The position numbers and the translations under genes are program-made. Below, piece after piece: positions 2,008 to 61,818 of a stretch of DNA of 64,000 nt (position 1 is the first letter of the stretch; each line of letters opens with the position of its first letter). The notes under the pieces are model-generated. The model saw only the letters and a list, made by a program, of their open reading frames with translations. It was not told the DNA's origin and did not search any database. This DNA is from Peptococcaceae bacterium (GTDB lineage Bacteria; Bacillota; Peptococcia; DRI-13; PHAD01): assembly GCA_040767105.1 (NCBI GenBank), contig JAXGPE010000005.1, positions 3,855 through 67,854 on the forward strand, given 5' to 3'.

Positions 2008-2034
2008 AAAGCAGCTGCCAACGGCAGCTGCTTT
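2008..2034. terminator. Bidirectional terminator between convergent genes
   Basis: Perfect 9-bp stem gcagctgcc/ggcagctgc with a 3-nt loop, flanked by an A-run and a T-run. Confidence 0.8.
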
Positions 2035-2791
2035 AAAAATACTTTTGTTTAATTTCTGAGACTATTTGCTCGACTCGATCTGTAACCTGGGGTATAGAGT
2101 ATCCTATATAAATTGGAGATGTTATAAATCTGGGTATGACCTTTGCAAAAAATACATCTTCTAAGTGGTAGAAGAATAGATTGTAGCTCTGACACTGCCT
2201 GAAATGGTTAAGCAGGTAATGTATACATATCTGCAGGTAATCCGCCATTATATCAAGTTTATCAAGATTCTTAAGCACTACATTGAACTCTGAGAAACCG
2301 ACACGCGGATGATCGGAAATATTTAATTCAACGCCGCAATTCTGATCGATAATATGACCGCCAAACTGTTCTGGTGATATGTTATGACGATAATCAAGTT
2401 TATTGAAACCTATTATTTGCATGTGTGCATGAGCGATAGATCCGCCGGACAGTGGCCCATGATTTTTAAAAAGGATGACCGAGGCATATCGACCACATTT
2501 TTCTAAGGATAACCAGTGTTTAAAGGCAAAGTGGAACAAACGATGCAGATGTTCCTTGCTATAAGTTGAGAATTCTGCATCGCAGCTGTCGGTTTCGATA
2601 AGGACAGTCTGATAAGCATCTTCGATGACCTGAAATTTGTTTTTGACCAATAATATTGGTCCATCTTCGTCCAAAATGTCAGTCAAAGCTGAACGTTCGC
2701 AAAATGGGCAAGTATTCACCAGTCCTGCCGTATAAGTAAATTTCTGTTTACCCATTATGGAATTAAAAGTAAGTACATGTTCGGATTTCAT
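2033..2791 (-). CDS. GalT-like HIT-superfamily nucleotidyltransferase (DUF4931-type)
   Basis: 252-aa ORF with a CPFC zinc motif near the N-terminus and SIAHAHMQ (HxHxQ) like galactose-1-phosphate uridylyltransferase. Family assignment is from memory. Confidence 0.6.
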   Translation of the reverse strand: MKSEHVLTFNSIMGKQKFTYTAGLVNTCPFCERSALTDILDEDGPILLVKNKFQVIEDAYQTVLIETDSCDAEFSTYSKEHLHRLFHFAFKHWLSLEKCGRYASVILFKNHGPLSGGSIAHAHMQIIGFNKLDYRHNISPEQFGGHIIDQNCGVELNISDHPRVGFSEFNVVLKNLDKLDIMADYLQICIHYLLNHFRQCQSYNLFFYHLEDVFFAKVIPRFITSPIYIGYSIPQVTDRVEQIVSEIKQKYF

Positions 2792-11674: not shown

Positions 11675-11749
11675 TGGTACGCCCGGTAGGAATCGAACCT
11701 ACGCACCTGGCTCCGGAGGCCAGCGCTCTATCCACTGAGCTACGGGCGC
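11675..11749 (-). tRNA. tRNA-Arg (anticodon CCG)
   Basis: The reverse complement gcgcccgtagctcagtggatagagcgctggcctCCGgagccag...ggttcgattcctaccgggcgtacca folds as a cloverleaf. Anticodon loop is CTCCGGA and the CCA end is encoded. Confidence 0.9.
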
Positions 11750-13090: not shown

Positions 13091-15744
13091 ATGAAATCAT
13101 TGAGGAACGAATTGATATTTATTGATCTTGAAACAACTGGTTTGAACCCCGACTGTGATAAGATAATTGAGATCGCAGCGGTTTGGTATGAAGCAAATGG
13201 TTCAAAAAATATTTATCAGAAACTGATCGATCCGGAAGTTGAAATCCCTGAGTTTATTTCCAGATTAACGGGTATAGATAATGCTATGGTAGATTATGCA
13301 CCTCGTGCTGAAGAAATTGTAAAAGAAGTAGATAAATTATTTGAAAACAAAATAATTGTTGCCCATAATGCCCGCTTCGATGTGTCATTTTTGGAAAAAT
13401 TATTATCTAAAAAGTTAGATAATAAAATTATTGATACTCTTGATCTTTGTAAACTTGTGTTCCCTGAATTTGATTCTTATGCGCTACGCAGCATCGCGGC
13501 TTTTTTTGGATTTGCCACTCAATCGGATCATAGAGCTTTGAGTGATGTAGAAATACTTATATCTTTATACGATATTATATATGAAAATATTAAGAACATT
13601 TCAATAACAGTACTTGAAGAGCTTAAAAGCTTGCTTTGGCACGAAAAATATGCGTTAAGCTTACCATTTGCGGAAGTATAAATGAAAAAATCAGTAATAA
13701 TCATGAAATAGTATTTGATAAAAAACCATCAAGCAATTTACAGAGATTGTGCGTGGTGCTCCAAAAAAGAATTTAAGCTGGGATATTTCAGCGATGGAAA
13801 AAATGCTTATCAGGGGAGGCGAGATTTCTAACAGCATTGATGGATATGAGGAAAGAAAATCACAAATTATTACGATGAAAGCTGTGGCCAAAGCTTTTCA
13901 GCAAAGCAGGCATTTGATAGTCGAGGCTGGAACAGGTGTCGGGAAATCAATGGCTTATTTGTTGCCTGCTGTATTATGGTCTTTGACACAAGATGAAAAA
14001 GTAATTATAGCAGCGCATACTATTGCGCTGCAAGAGCAGTTACTCAATAAAGAAGCAGTATTTCTAAAATATGATATTGATTTGGAATTTAAAACAGCAG
14101 TATTAAAAGGACGAAGTAATTATTTTTGCATGAGCAAATGGCTGTCTTATAAAAGTAACGCTATTAAGTACTCATGGAACGAAAGAATATTCACAGCCAG
14201 AATTTGCATATGGCTTTCCAGAGAACATGCAGGGGATAGAGACCATATCAATCTAAATGACTGGGAAAATGATATATATATGCAGTTGAGTTCGACCGCT
14301 GAAAGTTGCTGGGGGAAGGGCTGTCCAAATATAAATATGTGTTTTATGATAATGCCAAACAAGCAGCACACCAGGCAAATATAGTGATAGTAAACCATTC
14401 TCTTCTACTTGCTGATCTAAAAAATGCTGAAAGCATATTACCTGTTTATTCATTTCTTATAATTGATGAAGCACATAATTTGCTTGACGAAGGCAAAAAG
14501 CAGTTCAGCGAAATATTTTCGTTGCGTGAATACGCTAAAAACATAGTCTTTATCCAAAAATATTTGGCGAGATCTAAAAATAATCATATTCAAAGAATCA
14601 ACGAGATCATAAGAGAAATAAGCGAATACCACTTGCTAGAAGGAATGAAAGACTCAATACTGATCTCTCAAGATAAGACGGGGAAAAATGGTGGAGTCAC
14701 CTGCGTGCGTCATGTGAAAATTTAGTTTTAAACACAACATACTTGCTTGAGGAAATCGTATTGATGGAAGAAGAGCAGAAGGCATATAATCTTAAGAACG
14801 TAAATAAACAAATCAAAAACAGTATTGATATAATAAAAAGATTCTTTAACGATATGGATGAAACAAAGAATATTTACTGGATCGAAAAGAATATGCACTC
14901 TATGGAGATGAGCTTTATCATTACGCCTAATAATACTGAGGAATATTTCAGCAGGCTATTATTCAATGCGAAAGAATCGATTATTTTAACTTCTGCCACG
15001 ATGAGTGTTGAGGATAGTTTTACCTACCAGATAAAACATCTTGGTATCCCCGATGAGCTAATTGATTGCAAGATACTTACTTCGCCGTTTTTTTATAGTG
15101 AGCAATCAATCACATTGGTGGATACGAGTATGCCTGATCCCGGAAAAACAAGTGATGCAATATTTAACATCGCCACTGCGGATGCCTTGTTGAATTATTT
15201 AAAAATCGTCGGAGGAGGAACGCTGGTATTATTTACATCACGCAAGCAAATTATAGAAGTTTTTGATATCCTTTATAAAGAGTTAAAAAATATTGGTTTG
15301 GACCTCTTCGCTGATGGAATAAATGGAAGGCGACAAATCTTGATAAATGAAATGAAGAAAAACCCGAATGCAGTGATATTTGGTGCAAGAGCTTTCTGGG
15401 AAGGCATTGATCTGCCCGGAGAATCCTTAAGAACCTTGATAATGGTTCGACTTCCTTTTGATCCACCAACAATTCCTCTTACTGAAGCTATAATGAAGGA
15501 ATATGCGAGTAAAAACAAAGATGGGTTTACTGAATACTGTCTGCCAAGAGCAATTCTACGTTTTAGACAAGGATTTGGAAGATTGATTCGAACACAAAAT
15601 GATCGAGGAGTTTTTGTCGTACTGGATAAAAGATTGATCACCAAACAATATGGACGTGCTTTTATCAATTCTTTACCCCAACAAGAGTATCTTGCAGGAG
15701 ATACAGCAACTCTTGTGGAAGAAGTATCTTCGTGGTTTTCATGA
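13091..15744 (+). CDS. dinG: DinG-type ATP-dependent helicase fused to an N-terminal DnaQ-like 3'-5' exonuclease; frame interrupted about 4 times in this sequence
   Basis: Four ORF fragments (13091..13681, 13749..14384, 14306..14725, 14743..15744) are collinear with Firmicutes DinG. The exo motifs are FIDLETTGL, VAHNARFDVSFL and HRALSDVE. The helicase motifs are EAGTGVGKS, IIDEAHNL and WEGIDLPG. Frame changes lie near 13680, 13740, 14300-14384 and 14725-14743. Confidence 0.8.
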
Positions 15745-22681: not shown

Positions 22682-22809
22682 CATGGCAGGGGCGGCAGGA
22701 ATCGAACCCGCAACCAACGGATTTGGAGTCCGCTACTCTACCAGTTGAGCTACACCCCTGTTATTTACACATTGCTCATTATATGACAAGATATTTATTA
22801 TGTCAATTA
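22682..22809. repeat. Direct repeat copy 1 (128 bp): tRNA-Trp gene plus its consensus promoter
   Basis: Identical to 25460..25586 except for one G in a G-run. The minus strand reads ttgaca (22801-22806), 17 nt, tataat (22778-22783), then the tRNA. Confidence 0.9.
22684..22759 (-). tRNA. tRNA-Trp (anticodon CCA), copy 1, intact
   Basis: The reverse complement is aggggtgtagctcaactggtagagtagcggactCCAaatccgttggttgcgggttcgattcctgccgcccctgcca. It has a 7-bp acceptor stem AGGGGTG/CGCCCCT, discriminator G and an encoded CCA. Confidence 0.92.
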
Positions 22810-25459: not shown

Positions 25460-25586
25460 CATGGCAGGGCGGCAGGAATCGAACCCGCAACCAACGGATT
25501 TGGAGTCCGCTACTCTACCAGTTGAGCTACACCCCTGTTATTTACACATTGCTCATTATATGACAAGATATTTATTATGTCAATTA
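25460..25586. repeat. Direct repeat copy 2 (127 bp): tRNA-Trp gene plus consensus promoter
   Basis: See copy 1. On the minus strand the -10 is at 25555-25560 and the -35 at 25578-25583. Confidence 0.9.
25462..25536 (-). tRNA. tRNA-Trp (anticodon CCA), copy 2, one nt shorter in the 3' acceptor strand as given
   Basis: Same sequence as copy 1, but tggcagggcgg replaces tggcaggggcgg. This leaves a 6-nt 3' acceptor strand (CGCCCT). Confidence 0.85.
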
Positions 25587-25684
25587 CTTGGACAAAGGTT
25601 GAATAAGCATATAATTAACATGTGTACAAATTATTCGATATGTAATAATATGGTAATTGATTAAACAAGCGAGGAGTGACGAAT

Positions 25685-26379
25685 ATGAGGGTGATTTTCC
25701 ATGGACATTCTTGTTTCTCAATATTAACAGATCGATATCATATAATCATAGACCCTTTTTTTATACGGGCAATCCAAAAGCAGAAATAAAAGTTGATGAA
25801 ATTAAGCCGACGCACATTTTATTGACACACGGACATCAAGATCACCTTGGAGACGCTATATATCTTTCAAAAAAATCAAAAGCTATAATAATTGCACCGA
25901 ATGAGCTTGGTTTATATTGTGCGAGTTTAAAGGCGCTCTGGTTCATCGAATGCATATAGGAGGAAGCTGAGGAACTTTGAATTTGGCTGGGTGAAGCTCA
26001 CTCCTGCGTAGCATGGTTCAGCGGTTGTAGAAAATAACAAGATAATATATACTGGTACACCTTGCGGTTATATTATCAGGATTGAGATAAGTATATTTAT
26101 CATGCCGGAGATACGGGATTGTTTGGTGACATGTCATTGATCGGTGATTCATATGATTTGACCTGTGCTATGATACCCATCGGAGATAATTATGTCATGG
26201 GGCCAGAAGATGCAATCAAAGCAGCGGAAATGTTGAACCCAAAAATCGTAATACCAATGCATTACAATACTTTCCCGGAAATTGAACAAGACCCGGAAGA
26301 TTTTGCTCAGAGAACCAATGCTATTTTAGCTGAAAACAGAGTTAGAGTACTATCCCCCGGCGACTATATCAGCATATAA
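25685..26379 (+). CDS. UPF0173 metal-dependent hydrolase (YtkL-like, MBL fold); frame interrupted several times in this sequence
   Basis: MRVIFHGHSCFSILTD... (ATG 25685), ...THILLTHGHQDHLGDA..., ...YHAGDTGLFGDM... and the intact tail ORF 26119..26379 are collinear but in different frames. Confidence 0.75.
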
Positions 26380-45092: not shown

Positions 45093-45122
45093 GCATTCAA
45101 AATGTTTTCAGGAGGTAGCAAA

Positions 45123-48100
45123 GTGCCTTTCAATATAAAAGAATCTCCCATTTTTATTGATGCGATGTGTGTGCTTGACTTTAGTGACGAAAGTAAAGTT
45201 TTTTAAAACAATGTGCAATAAAAGATATTCTGGTTTCCCAGGCTGAGAAAGCTTGGGAAATCAGTTTTATATGTCCGGAGTCATCTAACGAAGCAATAGA
45301 AGACTGTGCCAGAAAATTGTTCGAATATATCTTTGGTTCATTATTTTCATATAAATTTATATTTCAAAGCACTTATAATTCTATAAAAATCGATAGTATC
45401 TGTGGGGAGCATAAGGAATATTTACTGGATCAATTATCTTCTGCTTTTCCGATATGTAGAACCTGGATGAAAAACGCTCGTTTTTCAGTAAAAGGAAACT
45501 GTCTGCAATTATATATCAACCAGGAGATCGGATGGCAATATATGATATCCAGAAATTTCTCGAGATATTTAGAAGAAATAATCAATAAGAAGTATAATCT
45601 AACGGTGAATGTAGAACTGTTGTTAAATGAAGATAACCATGATGACCCAGCTGATAATGAATCTTATCTTGACGAAATACTTGAAACTAGAATCGATGAA
45701 TATGCGAAAACTGAAGAAAACAAATCGGAGGGGCAAAAAAACACAAGTCAAAAATATCAGTAATACACGGGAAAAAGATAAACGTAAAGCCGGTATTAAT
45801 ACAAGAAATCGTTGAAGAGGAAAAGGATATCACAATCAAAGGTTTCCTTTTTAATAAAGAAGTTCGGTTGCTGAAAACTGGGCGAAAAATAATTAACTTT
45901 TCATTATCAGATAAAACCGATTCTATATCGTGTAAGCTAATAATTGACAGTAAACGTTCGGAAGCTATTGAAAAAAGAATACAGGAAAAATCATGGTATT
46001 TGATCCGAGGACAGGTTTCGGTAGATAGCTATTCACAAGAGCTTACAATGATCCCAAGGGATATCTGCGAAGCTTATCATGAACAAAGAGTCGATACTGC
46101 AACGGATAAGCGTATAGAGTTACATATGCATACAAAAATGAGTGCGCTAGATGGACTGGCTGATATAGATGAAATAATCAAACGAACAAGCATTTGGGGA
46201 CATGAGGCTATTGCTATAACAGATCATGGAGTAGTCCAGGCTTTTCCCGAAGCATATGAGGCAGGAAAAAGGTACAACGTTAAAATAATTTATGGATTAG
46301 AAGCTTATATTTTTAATGACGATCATACTTCAGAAATGCATCATGCAAAAGCACAAACCTATCATTGTATAATACTAGCCCAAACAAAGGAGGGATTGCG
46401 TAATTTATATGAGCTTGTAACACTATCTCATCTAAAATATTTCTACAGAGTACCAAGAATACCAAAAAGCACACTTGCCCGATTAAGAAAAGGACTGCTT
46501 TTAGGTTCTGCATGTGAGTCAGGAGAATTGATCCAAGGATATATAAACGGAATCGATAAAAGATCTTTGGAACAAATTGCATCTTTCTACGATTTTCTTG
46601 AGATACAACCGAGAGGAAACAATAAATTTTTACTGGACAATGGAACTTTTACTTCTGAACAATCTCTGCTTGATATGAATAAAAGCATTTATGGTATGGC
46701 GAAAGAGCTAGATAAGCGTATAGTTGCGACCGGTGATGTTCATTTTATTGATCCAGAGGATGAAGTATATAGAAGAATTCTGATGGCTGGCAAAGGGTTC
46801 GAAGATTCAGATGACCAGGCTCCTTTATATTTCAAAAATACTCAAGAAATGTTAGAAGAATTTGCTTATCTGGGTTTGGATGAAGCTCAAGAGGTAGTGA
46901 TCGGGAATCCTAAGTATATTTGTGATCTTATTGAAGAATTGATCCCTATTCCGAGTGATTTCTATCCACCGGAGATACCGGGTGCAGAAAAAGAAATCGA
47001 ATATCTAACAATGCAGGAAGCCAAAAAATTATACGGAGATCCGTTGCCCAAACTTGTAAATGATAGGATCCGAAAAGAGCTTGATGCGATAATAAATAAC
47101 GGTTTTGCAGTGCTATATCTTACAGCTCATAAATTAGTTCGCAAATCCAATGAAGATGGATACCTTGTTGGATCCAGGGGTTCTGTAGGATCATCTTTAG
47201 TAGCAACACTTTGCGGCATAACGGAAGTAAACCCTTTATCGCCTCATTATCGCTGCCCGAACTGTTCAGAAAGTGAATTCATCAATGACATTAATGTTCG
47301 TTCAGGTTTTGATTTGCCAAATAAAGTTTGTCAACGCTGCAATACCGAGATGATAAAAGATGGTCATAATATACTTTTTGAGGTGTTTATGGGTTTTAAA
47401 GGCGACAAAGTGCCGGATATAGATTTGAATTTTTCCGGAGAATATCAACCCAAAGCTCATAAATATACCGAAGAAATATTTGGTAAAGAAAACGTCTTTA
47501 GAGCCGGGACGATTGCAACCATAGCTCAAAAAACCGCCTTCGGATTTGTTAAAAATTATTTTGAGGAGAGAAAGAAAAGCTTGCGTAATCCAGAAATCAA
47601 TCGTTTACTCGCTGGGTGCACAGGAGTAAAAAGAACAACTGGACAGCATCCGGGAGGATTGATGGTTTTACCCAAGGGATTAGATGTTCATTTATTTACT
47701 CCTTTGCAAAGGCCTGCCGATGATCTTAAAACAGATACTATCACGACCCATTTTGATTATCATGCTATTTCGAGCCGCTTGGTAAAACTTGATATACTTG
47801 GACATGACGATCCCACTGTGCTCAAAATGCTCGAAGATTTGACCGGTGTAAATTGCCGAGCAATCAATTTGAATGATCCAAAGGTATTTTCTCTGTTCCG
47901 ATCGACAGAGATTCTTGGCATCGACCCCAAAGAACTTGGTTCCAGAATGGGTACCCTCGGAATACCTGAATTCGGTACAAAATTTGTCAGACAAATGCTT
48001 GAGGATACAAAACCTCAGACATTTTCAGATTTGATCATGATAAGCGGTTTTTCACACGGGACGGATGTTTGGCTCCATAATGCACAAGATTTGATTCGGA

Positions 48101-48840
48101 ATAAGATTGCTGAGGTTTCTGAGGTTATTTCAACTCGAGATGACATAATGCTTTATTTAACCAAAAAAGGCATAAAACCTGATAAGGCATTTAAAATAAT
48201 GGAAGACGTCCGTAAAGGCAATGGTATTCGATCTGAATTTATAGATTTGCTTGAAGACCATCAGGTACCTGACTGGTACATTCGTTCTTGTCAGAAAATA
48301 AAATATATGTTTCCAAAAGCTCATGCAGCTGCCTACGTAATCATGGCACTCAGGATAGCGTATTTTAAAATACACTATCCAGCGGCTTTTTACACCAGCT
48401 TTTTTTCAGTAAGAGCTGATGAGTTTGACTCAGAAATAATTGTTGGGGGCATAAAAGCGATAAAAAACAAAATGGAGTACATTGATAAAAAAGGCGGAGA
48501 ATCCACTCAAACCGAGGATAAACTCTATACGATCCTCGAAGTATCCTTGGAAATGTTTTTAAGAGGCATAAGATTAAAACATGTCGATTTAAATAACTCT
48601 GATGCAAAATGCTTTAAAATCGACGAAGGAGGCAAGTCATTGCTCCCGCCGCTCGTTTCATTGCCCGGCTTAGGTCAAAACGCTGCTATGTCTATAGTCA
48701 ATGCTCGCTCGAAAAAACCTTTTACTTCTCAAGACGATTTAAGAACAAGAGCTAAATTAACTAAAACTGTGATCGAGGTCTTGAATAATCATGGATGTCT
48801 CTCGACATTGCCTCAAAGCGATCAGATCACACTTTTTTAA
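45123..48840 (+). CDS. polC: DNA polymerase III PolC-type alpha subunit lacking the 3'-5' exonuclease insertion; two homopolymer frame interruptions in the N-terminal region
   Basis: GTG 45123 follows CAGGAGG. Frame changes lie at the T6 run 45199-45204 and the A7 run 45735-45741. The main ORF 45868..48840 has the OB fold, PHP (LHMHTKMS, ITDHG, GLEA), the PolC zinc finger CPNC...CQRC and GQHPGG. Only about 20 aa separate GLEAYI from YHCIILAQTKEG, where PolC normally carries a ~190-aa DEDD exonuclease. Confidence 0.88.
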
Positions 48841-60660: not shown

Positions 60661-60714
60661 GAATATAAAATTAAAATATTATAAAATCATATAAATACCT
60701 CGCTCTTATAGAGT

Positions 60715-60855
60715 GGGGTAGGGGTCGCGAAAACCATAAGTAATTCAGGGAGCTTGGCAGCGAGGAACTGAAATGAAAGGGGGATTCGCCGAAGTTTGAT
60801 AAATGCCTGTTTATCAAGCTGGGACAGTGTTGAAAAAGCACTGGACTGTCATGTG
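60715..60855 (+). promoter_or_regulatory. Lysine riboswitch (L-box) aptamer upstream of dapB-dapA
   Basis: Conserved L-box cores appear in the order seen in the B. subtilis lysC leader: tAGGGGTCGCGAAAAC, AGTA, GGGAG, CTGAAAtGAAAGGGGgAttCGCCGAAG, GCTGG, GGaCTGTCA. Confidence 0.8.
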
Positions 60856-60926
60856 CCAGGAACCCGGCCTGTCACATGGAGCACTATCTCGCTGTTGGGT
60901 TATGGGGGTGAGCTGGAGTCTAAATG

Positions 60927-60957
60927 GCTTGAGGTTGCAACTCTTGCCTTTTTTGTT
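60927..60957 (+). terminator. Putative expression-platform terminator of the lysine riboswitch
   Basis: Imperfect hairpin ggcttgag-gttgcaa-ctcttgcc (two T-T mismatches) followed by tttttt. It lies 60 nt before the dapB start. Confidence 0.5.
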
Positions 60958-61017
60958 TATACAGGATCATTTTTGATATCATTGGCAAAACTTTTAACAC
61001 AGTATGGGGGGATCAAA

Positions 61018-61818
61018 ATGCAAAAATTTAATATCGTTGTTACAGGTGCTTGTGGCAAAGTGGGAAGAGAAATGGTCAAGGGTATCGTGGATACAAAGGA
61101 CATGAATATTGCCGGTGCTGTCGATGTTTCCAACATTGGTCTCGATATAGGAGAAATCGTAGGATGCAAATCCTTGGGTGTGACTATCACAAATGATCTT
61201 CCGGCACTGATCAAGGATTTGTCCGCAAAAGCTCAGACAATTGTAGTGGATTTTACTTTTAAAGATGCCGCGCGGATAAATGTGCCTTTAGCACTAAAAA
61301 ATGGTGCGCATGTCGTGATGGGCACAACTGGCTTGACTTCTGATGAATTAACGAGCTTCGCTGATCTTGCTGAAAAGAATAATTTAGGTATATTTGTTGC
61401 TCCAAATTTTTCCCTCGGCGCTGTACTGATGATGAAAGCTGCTCGCGATATATCACGTTATATGAAGCAAGCAGAAATAATTGAATATCATAATGATAAA
61501 AAGGTCGATAGCCCATCCGGCACTGCCATCGCCACAGCACATGGCATGAAGGAAAATGCCTCATCCTGTGGATGTATAGGCAATGAAAAGGAAAACAGTG
61601 CCCGCGGCGCCGAATATGATGGGATCAGGATACACAGCGTTAGATTAAAAAGCCTTGTTGCACACCAGGAGGTTTTATTTTCAGGCTGTGGAGAATTACT
61701 GACCATACGTCACGATTCATTTTCAAGAGAGTCTTTTGTTCCTGGTGTTCTGATGGCAATACGTAAAGTAACATCATGGAAAGGAATTAGAATCGGTCTT
61801 GAGACTATTATGGATTAA
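61018..61818 (+). CDS. dapB: 4-hydroxy-tetrahydrodipicolinate reductase
   Basis: ORF 60796..61818 runs through the riboswitch. The true start is ATG 61018 after GGGGGGA. MQKFNIVVTGACGKVGREM, EYHNDKKVDSPSGTA. Confidence 0.9.
   Translation: MQKFNIVVTGACGKVGREMVKGIVDTKDMNIAGAVDVSNIGLDIGEIVGCKSLGVTITNDLPALIKDLSAKAQTIVVDFTFKDAARINVPLALKNGAHVVMGTTGLTSDELTSFADLAEKNNLGIFVAPNFSLGAVLMMKAARDISRYMKQAEIIEYHNDKKVDSPSGTAIATAHGMKENASSCGCIGNEKENSARGAEYDGIRIHSVRLKSLVAHQEVLFSGCGELLTIRHDSFSRESFVPGVLMAIRKVTSWKGIRIGLETIMD

Follow-up and report, generated by a model that had tools for sequence, protein, structure and literature searches.

We examined a polC gene in the window, the whole 64-kb stretch of DNA that was analyzed. 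The gene encodes a PolC-type DNA polymerase III alpha subunit without the exonuclease (exo) that is usually embedded in the PHP domain of this enzyme. In the features listed here, P0001 is an intact PolC from an independent Logan assembly and L081 is an independent assembly of the same region from a 98.3%-identical strain.

45110..45115, + strand: Shine-Dalgarno sequence AGGAGG, 7 nt 5′ of the polC GTG start at 45123, read from the sequence
45123..48840, + strand: polC, PolC-type DNA polymerase III alpha, exo-less subtype, 1239 aa with one base added at each of two homopolymers; matches the intact P0001
45199..45204, + strand: polC frame break 1 (frame 0 to frame 2), where the T6 run lacks one base that is present in L081
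45735..45741, + strand: polC frame break 2 (frame 2 to frame 1), where the A7 run lacks one base that is present in L081
45829..46065, + strand: OB fold, residues 237-315 (PF01336, 28.6 bits against a cutoff of 27; marginal)
46111..46950, + strand: PHP domain, residues 331-610, uninterrupted (PF02811)
46123, 46129, 46150, 46225 and 46300, + strand: codons of PHP ligands H335, H337, D344, H369 and E394, verified
46363, 46513, 46735 and 46741, + strand: codons of PHP ligands H415, C465, D539 and H541, verified
46309..46359, + strand: short loop, residues 397-413, IFNDDHTSEMHHAKAQT, at the site of the canonical ~193-aa DnaQ-like exonuclease, from alignment with exo-containing PolCs
46993..48222, + strand: polymerase core (palm, thumb and fingers), residues 625-1034 (PF07733, PF17657)
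47254-47340, + strand: zinc finger C712/C715/C737/C740, from motif positions
47416-47424, + strand: catalytic Asp residues D766 and D768, from motif positions
47791-47793, + strand: catalytic Asp residue D891, from motif positions
48565..48816, + strand: tandem helix-hairpin-helix domain, residues 1149-1232 (PF14579)
48823..48837, + strand: C-terminal beta-clamp-binding motif QITLF, residues 1235-1239, read directly

The original prediction had placed frame breaks at these T6 and A7 runs and had put the repaired product at about 1239 aa. Repair at both homopolymers indeed yielded a single open reading frame of 1239 aa plus a stop codon. Of the 1239 residues of the P0001 protein, 1224 are identical in the repaired protein, and the P0001 gene is uninterrupted at both break sites. 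The repair is valid because this intact ortholog carries neither break, and base-calling or assembly errors at the homopolymers are the likeliest cause of the two breaks.

Pfam matches on the repaired protein comprised the NII, OB, PHP, Pol3 alpha, finger, and HHH_6 domains, whereas PF00929 was absent, the pattern that the original prediction had expected of an hmmscan-type check (PolC N-terminal, PHP, and Pol III alpha domains matching without the exonuclease). The PolC N-terminal domain (PF11490, residues 97-208) scored a marginal 26.7 bits against a cutoff of 26.3; together with the OB fold it lies N-terminal to PHP, which is the order expected of PolC. The PolC equivalog NF001688 matched with 1545.9 bits (cutoff 873), split in two stretches, the larger of which pairs residues 399-1239 with profile positions 600-1444 of 1445, and TIGR01405 matched with 1390.5 bits (cutoff 1043). 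We also found the CPNC/CQRC zinc finger, GQHPGG, the catalytic motifs PDIDLNF and LDILGHDD, and the C-terminal QITLF, which we take to be the clamp motif from established knowledge of PolC. The hallmarks said to be kept (OB fold, CPNC...CQRC, GQHPGG, and C-terminal tail) were thus all recovered by Pfam matches and motif positions. The window gene is a real PolC without the DEDD exonuclease and with an intact PHP ligand set.

A DnaQ-like exonuclease of ~190 aa had been reported as missing, and both the alignment and the profile searches agree. Against the exo-containing PolCs of Carboxydocella (P0076) and Thermincola (P0104), the window protein shows a clean gap of ~193 residues between GLEAYIFNDDHT and SEMHHAKAQTYHCIILAQ, and an HMM of 11 PolC exo inserts had no match to the polC region in any reading frame. 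Among exo-less relatives in the aligned set, 10-22 residues lie between anchor positions 396-414. The distance from E394 to H415 is 20 residues in the window PolC versus 22 in Taq DnaE.

As judged from the alignment of relatives and from the codons, the window PolC has kept all nine metal ligands of the trinuclear PHP site (HHDHEHCDH), and in an alignment these pair one-to-one with the ligands of Taq DnaE. The earlier claim of a complete metal-ligand set therefore stands for every residue it listed, but it had overlooked D344. An AlphaFold2 model of the PHP domain had a mean pLDDT of 90.4, with blocks over the loop region averaging 80 and 70, and its best Foldseek match was 3F2B (TM 0.87). Across relatives, in counts that cover correctly extracted proteins, the nine ligands were invariant in 167 of 168 exo-less proteins (the exception, L045, has D344E), and the set was also complete in all 27 exo-containing ones. 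Since the full set is shared by exo-containing relatives, the ligands may serve structural stability. In a wider set of 50%-identity cluster representatives spanning the PHP region, with the window protein included, the ligands were intact in 26/28 exo-less versus 68/111 exo-containing proteins, a contrast (Fisher p = 0.0012, uncorrected for phylogeny) that is confounded by phylogeny; the two exo-less proteins with degenerate ligands were both truncated fragments. The idea that ligand conservation marks compensation was rejected, because exo-containing close relatives are equally intact and the contrast appears only in the wider set.

A six-frame search of the 64-kb window with the exo-insert HMM, built from the same 11 inserts, found no stand-alone dnaQ. 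The one match of this search, and the sole DnaQ-like domain of the window, was the N-terminus of a DinG helicase.

13091..15744, + strand: dinG, Firmicute-type helicase with an N-terminal DEDDh exonuclease at 13091-13681 (exo HMM, NF005981); gene split over four frames

The DinG family model NF005981 matched the exonuclease fragment and two helicase fragments of this gene. Because that model spans the same exonuclease-helicase architecture, nothing links the DinG domain to the loss of the PolC exonuclease, and we rejected the exo-HMM match at 13091-13678 as a split-off proofreading subunit; it is the ordinary N-terminus of a dinG gene fragmented by frame errors. No dnaE was recognized in the part of the window's open reading frames that was scanned.

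A survey of relatives for the same deletion found the exo-less form to be common, the insert being missing in 109 of the best 120 database homologs. The architecture occurs in more than 100 relatives from Peptococcia, Desulfitobacterium, Desulfosporosinus, Moorella, Heliorestis, Syntrophomonas, Sporomusa, Anaerovibrio, and Veillonellaceae, and matches of ~2.95 kb, the length expected without the insert, were seen at Desulfitobacterium, Desulfosporosinus, Sporomusa, Anaerovibrio, Veillonellaceae, and Syntrophomonas loci. Exo-less proteins made up 27 of 140 cluster representatives (50% identity, PHP region covered). Besides one 99%-identical metagenomic strain, the best matches to the window PolC were ~72% identical, and the nearest species-representative genomes, MAGs of Clostridia and Peptococcia, encode PolCs that are 66-67% identical. 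The nearest named relatives (Clostridia and Peptococcia MAGs, Thermanaerosceptrum, Desulfitobacterium, and Desulfosporosinus) place the host among the Clostridia/Negativicutes. In a neighbor-joining tree that covered 198 PolCs and omitted the insert columns, backbone branches were 0.002-0.02 long; an exo-containing Thermincola/Carboxydocella clade fell among exo-less groups, and a few exo-less proteins were scattered among exo-containing ones. L032, L058, and L062 (long branches, wrong ORF picked) were left out. Counting single versus multiple losses of the insert was abandoned because the tree is too poorly resolved.

Timinskas et al. (2014, PMC3919608) found the Exo insertion missing in 6% of PolCs, all of them from Clostridia/Negativicutes and all paired with DnaE1. 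The exo-less architecture is therefore an already known class, catalogued in 2014 and common in the lineage of the window, and the window PolC belongs to this subgroup. It shares with the catalogued proteins the N-terminal domain, OB fold, uninterrupted PHP, Pol3, and HhH without the Exo insertion, as well as the taxonomic block and the conserved PHP metal site; there is no difference in kind, the window PolC coming from an uncultured lineage.

Compared with canonical PolC (Bacillus, Staphylococcus, and Geobacillus kaustophilus; NF001688 and TIGR01405; PDB 9QPC), every module and motif outside the exonuclease is the same, as is the locus beside rimP-nusA-infB, whereas the ~193-aa DEDDh exonuclease in the PHP loop is lacking from the window protein, and PHP ligand 8 is Asp in the window PolC versus Asn in Geobacillus PolC and 9QPC. 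The mutator effect of C669Y, seen in an exo-containing PolC, could act by destabilizing the embedded exonuclease. The crystallization construct of G. kaustophilus PolC (3F2B/3F2C/3F2D) aligns end to end with window residues 227-1239, and an SGSG stretch in 3F2B aligns with the natural 17-residue loop. This stretch is said to be an engineered linker in the 2008 work of Evans et al. The construct derives from an exo-containing enzyme by artificial deletion and also lacks the N-terminal domain, whereas the window PolC is a natural full-length form. Mycobacterium tuberculosis (Mtb) DnaE1 (5LEW) and Thermus Pol III alpha (2HPI) share with it the nine-residue trinuclear site HHDHEHCDH and a DnaE-like length of the loop between ligands 5 and 6 (20 residues in the window PolC, 22 in Taq); they belong to another C-family branch, while the window protein has the PolC order, with OB and N-terminal domain N-terminal to PHP. 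According to PMC5636811, the PolC exonuclease is inserted in exactly the PHP loop along which, in Mtb DnaE1, the primer reaches the PHP active site. The primer-path loop residues of Mtb DnaE1 are S100 and Y105.

We consider it probable that the window gene is the single orthologous functional polC of the exo-less subgroup, with PHP as the likeliest proofreader and with DnaE1 encoded elsewhere. The subgroup comprises anaerobic Firmicutes (Peptococcia/Desulfitobacteriia/Moorellia/Syntrophomonadia/Negativicutes), and the window PolC retains all polymerase, DNA-binding, and clamp-binding modules. A loop of DnaE1/Taq size takes the place of the DnaQ-type domain, and the nine-residue trinuclear site of the PHP domain around it is complete. 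In the proposed scheme, misincorporated 3′ nucleotides would be removed by PHP, as in Mtb DnaE1 and Thermus Pol III alpha, and PolC would function together with a DnaE1 from another part of the genome. On this analysis, the PHP trinuclear metal center is most likely the proofreader of exo-less PolC. There is perhaps an even chance of the broader proposal, that exo-less PolCs use the PHP center as their only proofreader and that the insert was lost, possibly more than once, only where PHP was still catalytically competent. Literature searches returned no biochemically characterized exo-less PolC and no exonuclease assay of one.

The two frame breaks in polC, along with many further broken genes in the window, might point to an exonuclease segment collapsed in assembly or to a decaying paralog with real breaks. 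L081, however, which matches the window collinearly across 23.7 kb (98.3% identity), has an intact gene with the same exo-less junction and no insertion near 46.33 kb. Over this distance the two differ by 17 indels, most of them at or beside homopolymer runs. The indels also strike several unrelated genes whose L081 copies are intact, the distribution expected from sequencing error. Gene calls and Pfam matches gave the order proS-GT2-mgtC-polC-rimP-nusA-ylxR-infB in L081, and the window polC sits at the canonical orthologous proS ... polC-rimP-nusA-infB locus. Its dN/dS relative to the P0001 ortholog is 0.13, so that purifying selection on the exo-less polC is strong, and the same architecture recurs in more than 100 homologs. 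On the junction, intact ortholog, locus, and dN/dS, we rejected assembly collapse and pseudogene formation, which together are extremely improbable.

The other alternatives accept the gene and move proofreading away from its PHP domain. A separate DEDDh exonuclease could proofread in trans, leaving PHP only a structural role; it might be the DinG N-terminus or a stand-alone DnaQ-like protein whose gene lies outside the window. The DEDDh domain at 13091-13681 is closely related to the PolC exonuclease (138 bits on the exo HMM) and has intact DLET, HNARFD, and HRALSD motifs; bacterial proteomes contain on average more than three stand-alone DnaQ homologs, and in Bacillus subtilis the PolC exonuclease proofreads for DnaE3 in trans (PMC12926913). 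Yet the DEDDh domain belongs to a standard Firmicute DinG, the consulted papers yielded no ε-type partner of any PolC, and no exo-like gene lay within 10 kb of polC in ~60 exo-less loci, on which ground a split exonuclease gene beside polC in relatives was rejected as well; we regard trans proofreading as quite improbable. It is also unlikely that PolC does without proofreading and has a reduced or specialized role, with DnaE1 and its intact PHP as the main or correcting replicase and fidelity secured by DnaE1 and mismatch repair. Timinskas et al. raised the same idea, noting that clostridial DnaE1 has all hallmarks of a self-sufficient replicase and is the sole replicase in some Clostridia, and their exo-less PolCs are all from clostridial genomes (PMC3919608). 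Against this, the low dN/dS indicates strong purifying selection, and the clamp motif, active site, and every PHP ligand are kept across more than 160 relatives, which would be needless for a non-proofreading accessory enzyme; degenerate ligands were confined to the two truncated fragments among 28 exo-less proteins. Of the two options offered by the original prediction, DnaQ in trans or PHP, both are live, and the evidence leans towards PHP.

The architecture of the window PolC adds nothing new in itself, as it is also common in Desulfitobacteriia, Moorellia, Syntrophomonadia, and Negativicutes. Exo-less PolC bears on more general questions, namely, fidelity without a DnaQ domain and the division of work in replisomes with both PolC and DnaE1 (flagged in PMC3919608 and PMC12926913). 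For tests of PHP proofreading in the PolC branch, natural exo-less PolCs provide clean material, and the window PolC or its intact twin P0001 offers a ready natural test case because the exonuclease deletion has already been made by nature. These enzymes also matter for PolC-targeted antibiotics, since they are present in gut Negativicutes. If proofreading by PHP is borne out, exo-less PolCs would be the first replicases of the PolC branch shown to use the ancestral PHP proofreader.

Addition of one base at each of two homopolymer runs gave a single open reading frame of 1239 codons that ends at 48840 and begins as follows:

45123, plus strand: GTG start codon of polC, with AGGAGG 7 nt upstream
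45199-45204, plus strand: T6 run, first frame break, after which translation goes on in frame 2
45735-45741, plus strand: A7 run, second frame break, after which translation goes on in frame 1

P0001, the intact PolC of a near-identical strain from an independent Logan assembly (run SRR26484016), likewise has 1239 aa, of which 1224 are identical in the repaired protein, and its frame runs uninterrupted across both break sites. The repair is therefore not guesswork, and the original prediction of a ~1239-aa PolC after mending of two homopolymer breaks is borne out.

A Pfam scan of the repaired protein matched the N-terminal NII domain, OB fold, PHP domain, Pol III alpha core, finger and tandem HhH, but no RNase_T/DnaQ domain, the pattern that had been expected. 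The NCBIfam PolC equivalog NF001688 matched in two stretches with a score of 1546 bits (cut-off 873); the larger stretch (residues 399-1239) corresponded to profile positions 600-1444 of 1445. Alignment with PolCs of Carboxydocella and Thermincola that carry the DEDDh exonuclease in the PHP loop (exo-containing) showed a single clean gap of ~193 residues between GLEAYIFNDDHT and SEMHHAKAQTYHCIILAQ, and in no frame of the polC region did a profile made from 11 inserts of the PolC exonuclease find a match; the exonuclease is absent, as claimed. The best PDB match, the Geobacillus kaustophilus PolC construct 3F2B, aligned end to end with residues 227-1239, with an SGSG stretch where the window PolC has a natural 17-residue loop. 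The PHP domain has its full set of nine metal ligands (H335, H337, D344, H369, E394, H415, C465, D539 and H541). Also present are the polymerase aspartates D766, D768 and D891, the zinc finger with its four cysteines, GQHPGG and, at the C-terminus, the QITLF clamp motif. Every particular of the original observation was confirmed, including the complete ligand set and the other PolC hallmarks (OB fold, zinc finger, GQHPGG and C-terminal tail).

L081, the contig that encodes P0001, was collinear with window positions 35125-58836 at 98.3% nucleotide identity. It held no extra DNA near 46.33 kb, so the missing exonuclease is not an assembly collapse, and this independent assembly upholds the view that no ~570-bp segment was lost there. 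Over these 23.7 kb we counted 17 indels, most at or beside homopolymer runs and clustered in four patches, with these genes broken in the window and intact in L081:

37.2-38.2 kb: cdsA and AI-2E transporter region
44.2-44.8 kb (within a frame-shifted stretch at 43.8-45.1 kb): glycosyltransferase (GT2) and mgtC
polC: broken twice, by two indels
55.4-56.1 kb: truB/ribF region

Indels mostly at homopolymers, in several genes that are intact in L081, point to homopolymer assembly errors rather than gene decay. A stray paralog was likewise ruled out: the two polC sequences differ by 31 synonymous and 16 non-synonymous changes (dN/dS 0.13), and the locus has the canonical Firmicute order (in L081, pyrH-frr-uppS-cdsA-dxr-rseP-ispG-proS-(GT2-mgtC)-polC-rimP-nusA-ylxR-L7Ae-infB-rbfA-truB-ribF-rpsO-pnp), so the window gene is the orthologous polC.

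Elsewhere in the window, single-base frame shifts also fragment amino-acid ABC transporter genes (22.9-25.0 kb) and a metallo-hydrolase gene (25657-26379); window-wide, such shifts look like uncorrected long-read error. Further features were as follows:

2033-2791, minus strand: DUF4931 protein, among the few long (at least 120 aa) minus-strand ORFs
11675-11749, minus strand: tRNA-Arg(CCG)
22684-22759, minus strand: tRNA-Trp(CCA)
25463-25536, minus strand: tRNA-Trp(CCA)
60711-60894, plus strand: lysine riboswitch (Rfam RF00168, 106 bits, full length)

The near-identical tRNA-Trp(CCA) genes, 2.7 kb apart, flank the fragmented ABC-transporter genes and differ solely in one C of the 3′ C-run. All three tRNAs are antisense to the nearly uniform plus-strand coding orientation, and the window shows strong positive GC skew. 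A TTG-start ORF (60796-61818) overlaps the 3′ part of the riboswitch.

We surveyed relatives for the same deletion, and it proved widespread. Among the 120 best database homologs, the junction was just 11-21 residues long in 109, which lacked PF00929 (exo-less), and ~210 residues long in the other 11. Named exo-less hosts included Thermanaerosceptrum fracticalcis, Desulfonispora, Desulfitobacterium hafniense, Paradesulfitobacterium, Moorella (Neomoorella) thermoacetica, Heliorestis and Formimonas, together with many Peptococcia and Syntrophomonadaceae MAGs. In species-representative genomes, where the closest matches were a Clostridia MAG (67%) and a Peptococcia MAG (66%), matches of ~2.95 kb, the length expected without the insert, came from Desulfosporosinus, Sporomusa, Anaerospora, Pelosinus, Anaerovibrio, Selenomonadales, Veillonellaceae and Syntrophomonas, and the 3.53-kb exo-containing form from Thermoanaerobacter, Halanaerobium, Tissierella and Brevibacillus. 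Of the 150 best hits when 1.84 billion cluster representatives were scanned exhaustively with HMMER, the 140 covering the PHP region comprised 27 exo-less, 111 exo-containing and 2 intermediate proteins.

In a neighbor-joining tree of 198 PolCs (from loci L001-L080 and proteins P0001-P0120), built with the insert columns left out, the exo-containing Thermincola/Carboxydocella/Phosphitispora clade was nested among exo-less groups, and isolated exo-less PolCs (loci L037, L073 from a Lachnospiraceae MAG, and L074) lay amid exo-containing ones. Junction sequence and length vary from clade to clade. Judged from these sequences, there are hints that the exonuclease was lost through decay or deletion, possibly repeatedly; because the branches of the unresolved backbone were too short, repeated loss is suggested but not sure. 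One cluster representative, P0153 (1323 aa), which retains the nine PHP ligands and the YLVDDGTP lead-in, has at the exonuclease site a 141-residue insert that shows no detectable resemblance to the DEDD domain. This insert may represent an exonuclease that has decayed or been replaced, intermediate between the two forms.

As to how an exo-less PolC proofreads, we lean towards its own PHP domain, which is predicted to do this work itself. Of 168 exo-less relatives that were correctly extracted, 167 have the nine ligands unchanged, the exception being D344E in locus L045. Each ligand aligns with its counterpart in Taq Pol III alpha, with 20 residues between ligands 5 (E394) and 6 (H415) compared to 22 in Taq. 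The ligand 5-6 loop is exactly where the PolC exonuclease is inserted, and in Mycobacterium tuberculosis DnaE1 it lines the groove guiding the primer to the PHP active site; Geobacillus PolC, with one ligand mutated, is without PHP exonuclease activity (Banos-Mateos et al., PMC5636811). Both the Geobacillus PolC and 9QPC sequences have Asn at the position of D539. An AlphaFold2 model of residues 325-620 (mean pLDDT 90.4, pTM 0.89) lost confidence over the loop only and superposed on 3F2B with a TM of 0.87. An intact ligand set occurred in 26 of the 28 exo-less proteins (the 27 cluster representatives plus the window's own; both exceptions are truncated fragments) and in 68 of the 111 with the exonuclease (Fisher p = 0.0012, not corrected for kinship). 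However, the closest exo-containing relatives have the same perfect set, so ligand conservation alone is no proof of catalysis. A further point for the PHP domain is that in Clostridium thermocellum, PolC C669Y, at the ligand equivalent to C465, suffices for a roughly 30-fold mutator phenotype (bioRxiv 10.1101/2021.07.30.454558), an effect that might be indirect since that PolC retains its DnaQ domain.

Proofreading could instead be supplied in trans by a separate DEDDh exonuclease, and the window's only DnaQ-like domain (13091-13681) has intact catalytic motifs and strongly resembles the exonuclease of PolC, with 138 bits on the profile made from the PolC inserts. It is, however, the N-terminus of a standard Firmicute DinG, so nothing ties it to the loss in PolC:

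13091-15744, plus strand: dinG, Firmicute type, with N-terminal DEDDh exonuclease domain; NF005981 matches three fragments

This gene is spread across four reading frames (13091 f2, 13749 f0, 14306 f2 and 14743 f1), apparently from single-base errors. No exonuclease-like ORF lay within 10 kb of polC in ~60 exo-less loci, and we regard supply in trans as quite improbable. Improbable too is the idea, raised by Timinskas et al. (PMC3919608), that PolC goes without proofreading and DnaE1 bears most of the load; PolC and its PHP ligands are under strong purifying selection, which speaks against it.

No biochemical work on any naturally exo-less PolC turned up in full-text literature searches, so the class is known from comparative genomics. 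The architecture has been in the literature since 2014 and is not new in kind: Timinskas et al. found that 6% of PolCs are exo-less and that these are, one exception aside, confined to Clostridia and Negativicutes, groups in which the partner of PolC is DnaE1 (PMC3919608). A 2026 survey by the same group defined the active PHP motif as HHDHEH[C/H]DH and named three putative proofreaders usual in Clostridia, the PHP domain in PolC, that in DnaE1 and the DnaQ domain of PolC (PMC12926913). In this part of the Firmicutes polC is ordinarily of the exo-less form, and the remaining interest, which is not peculiar to this window, lies in the proofreading mechanism.
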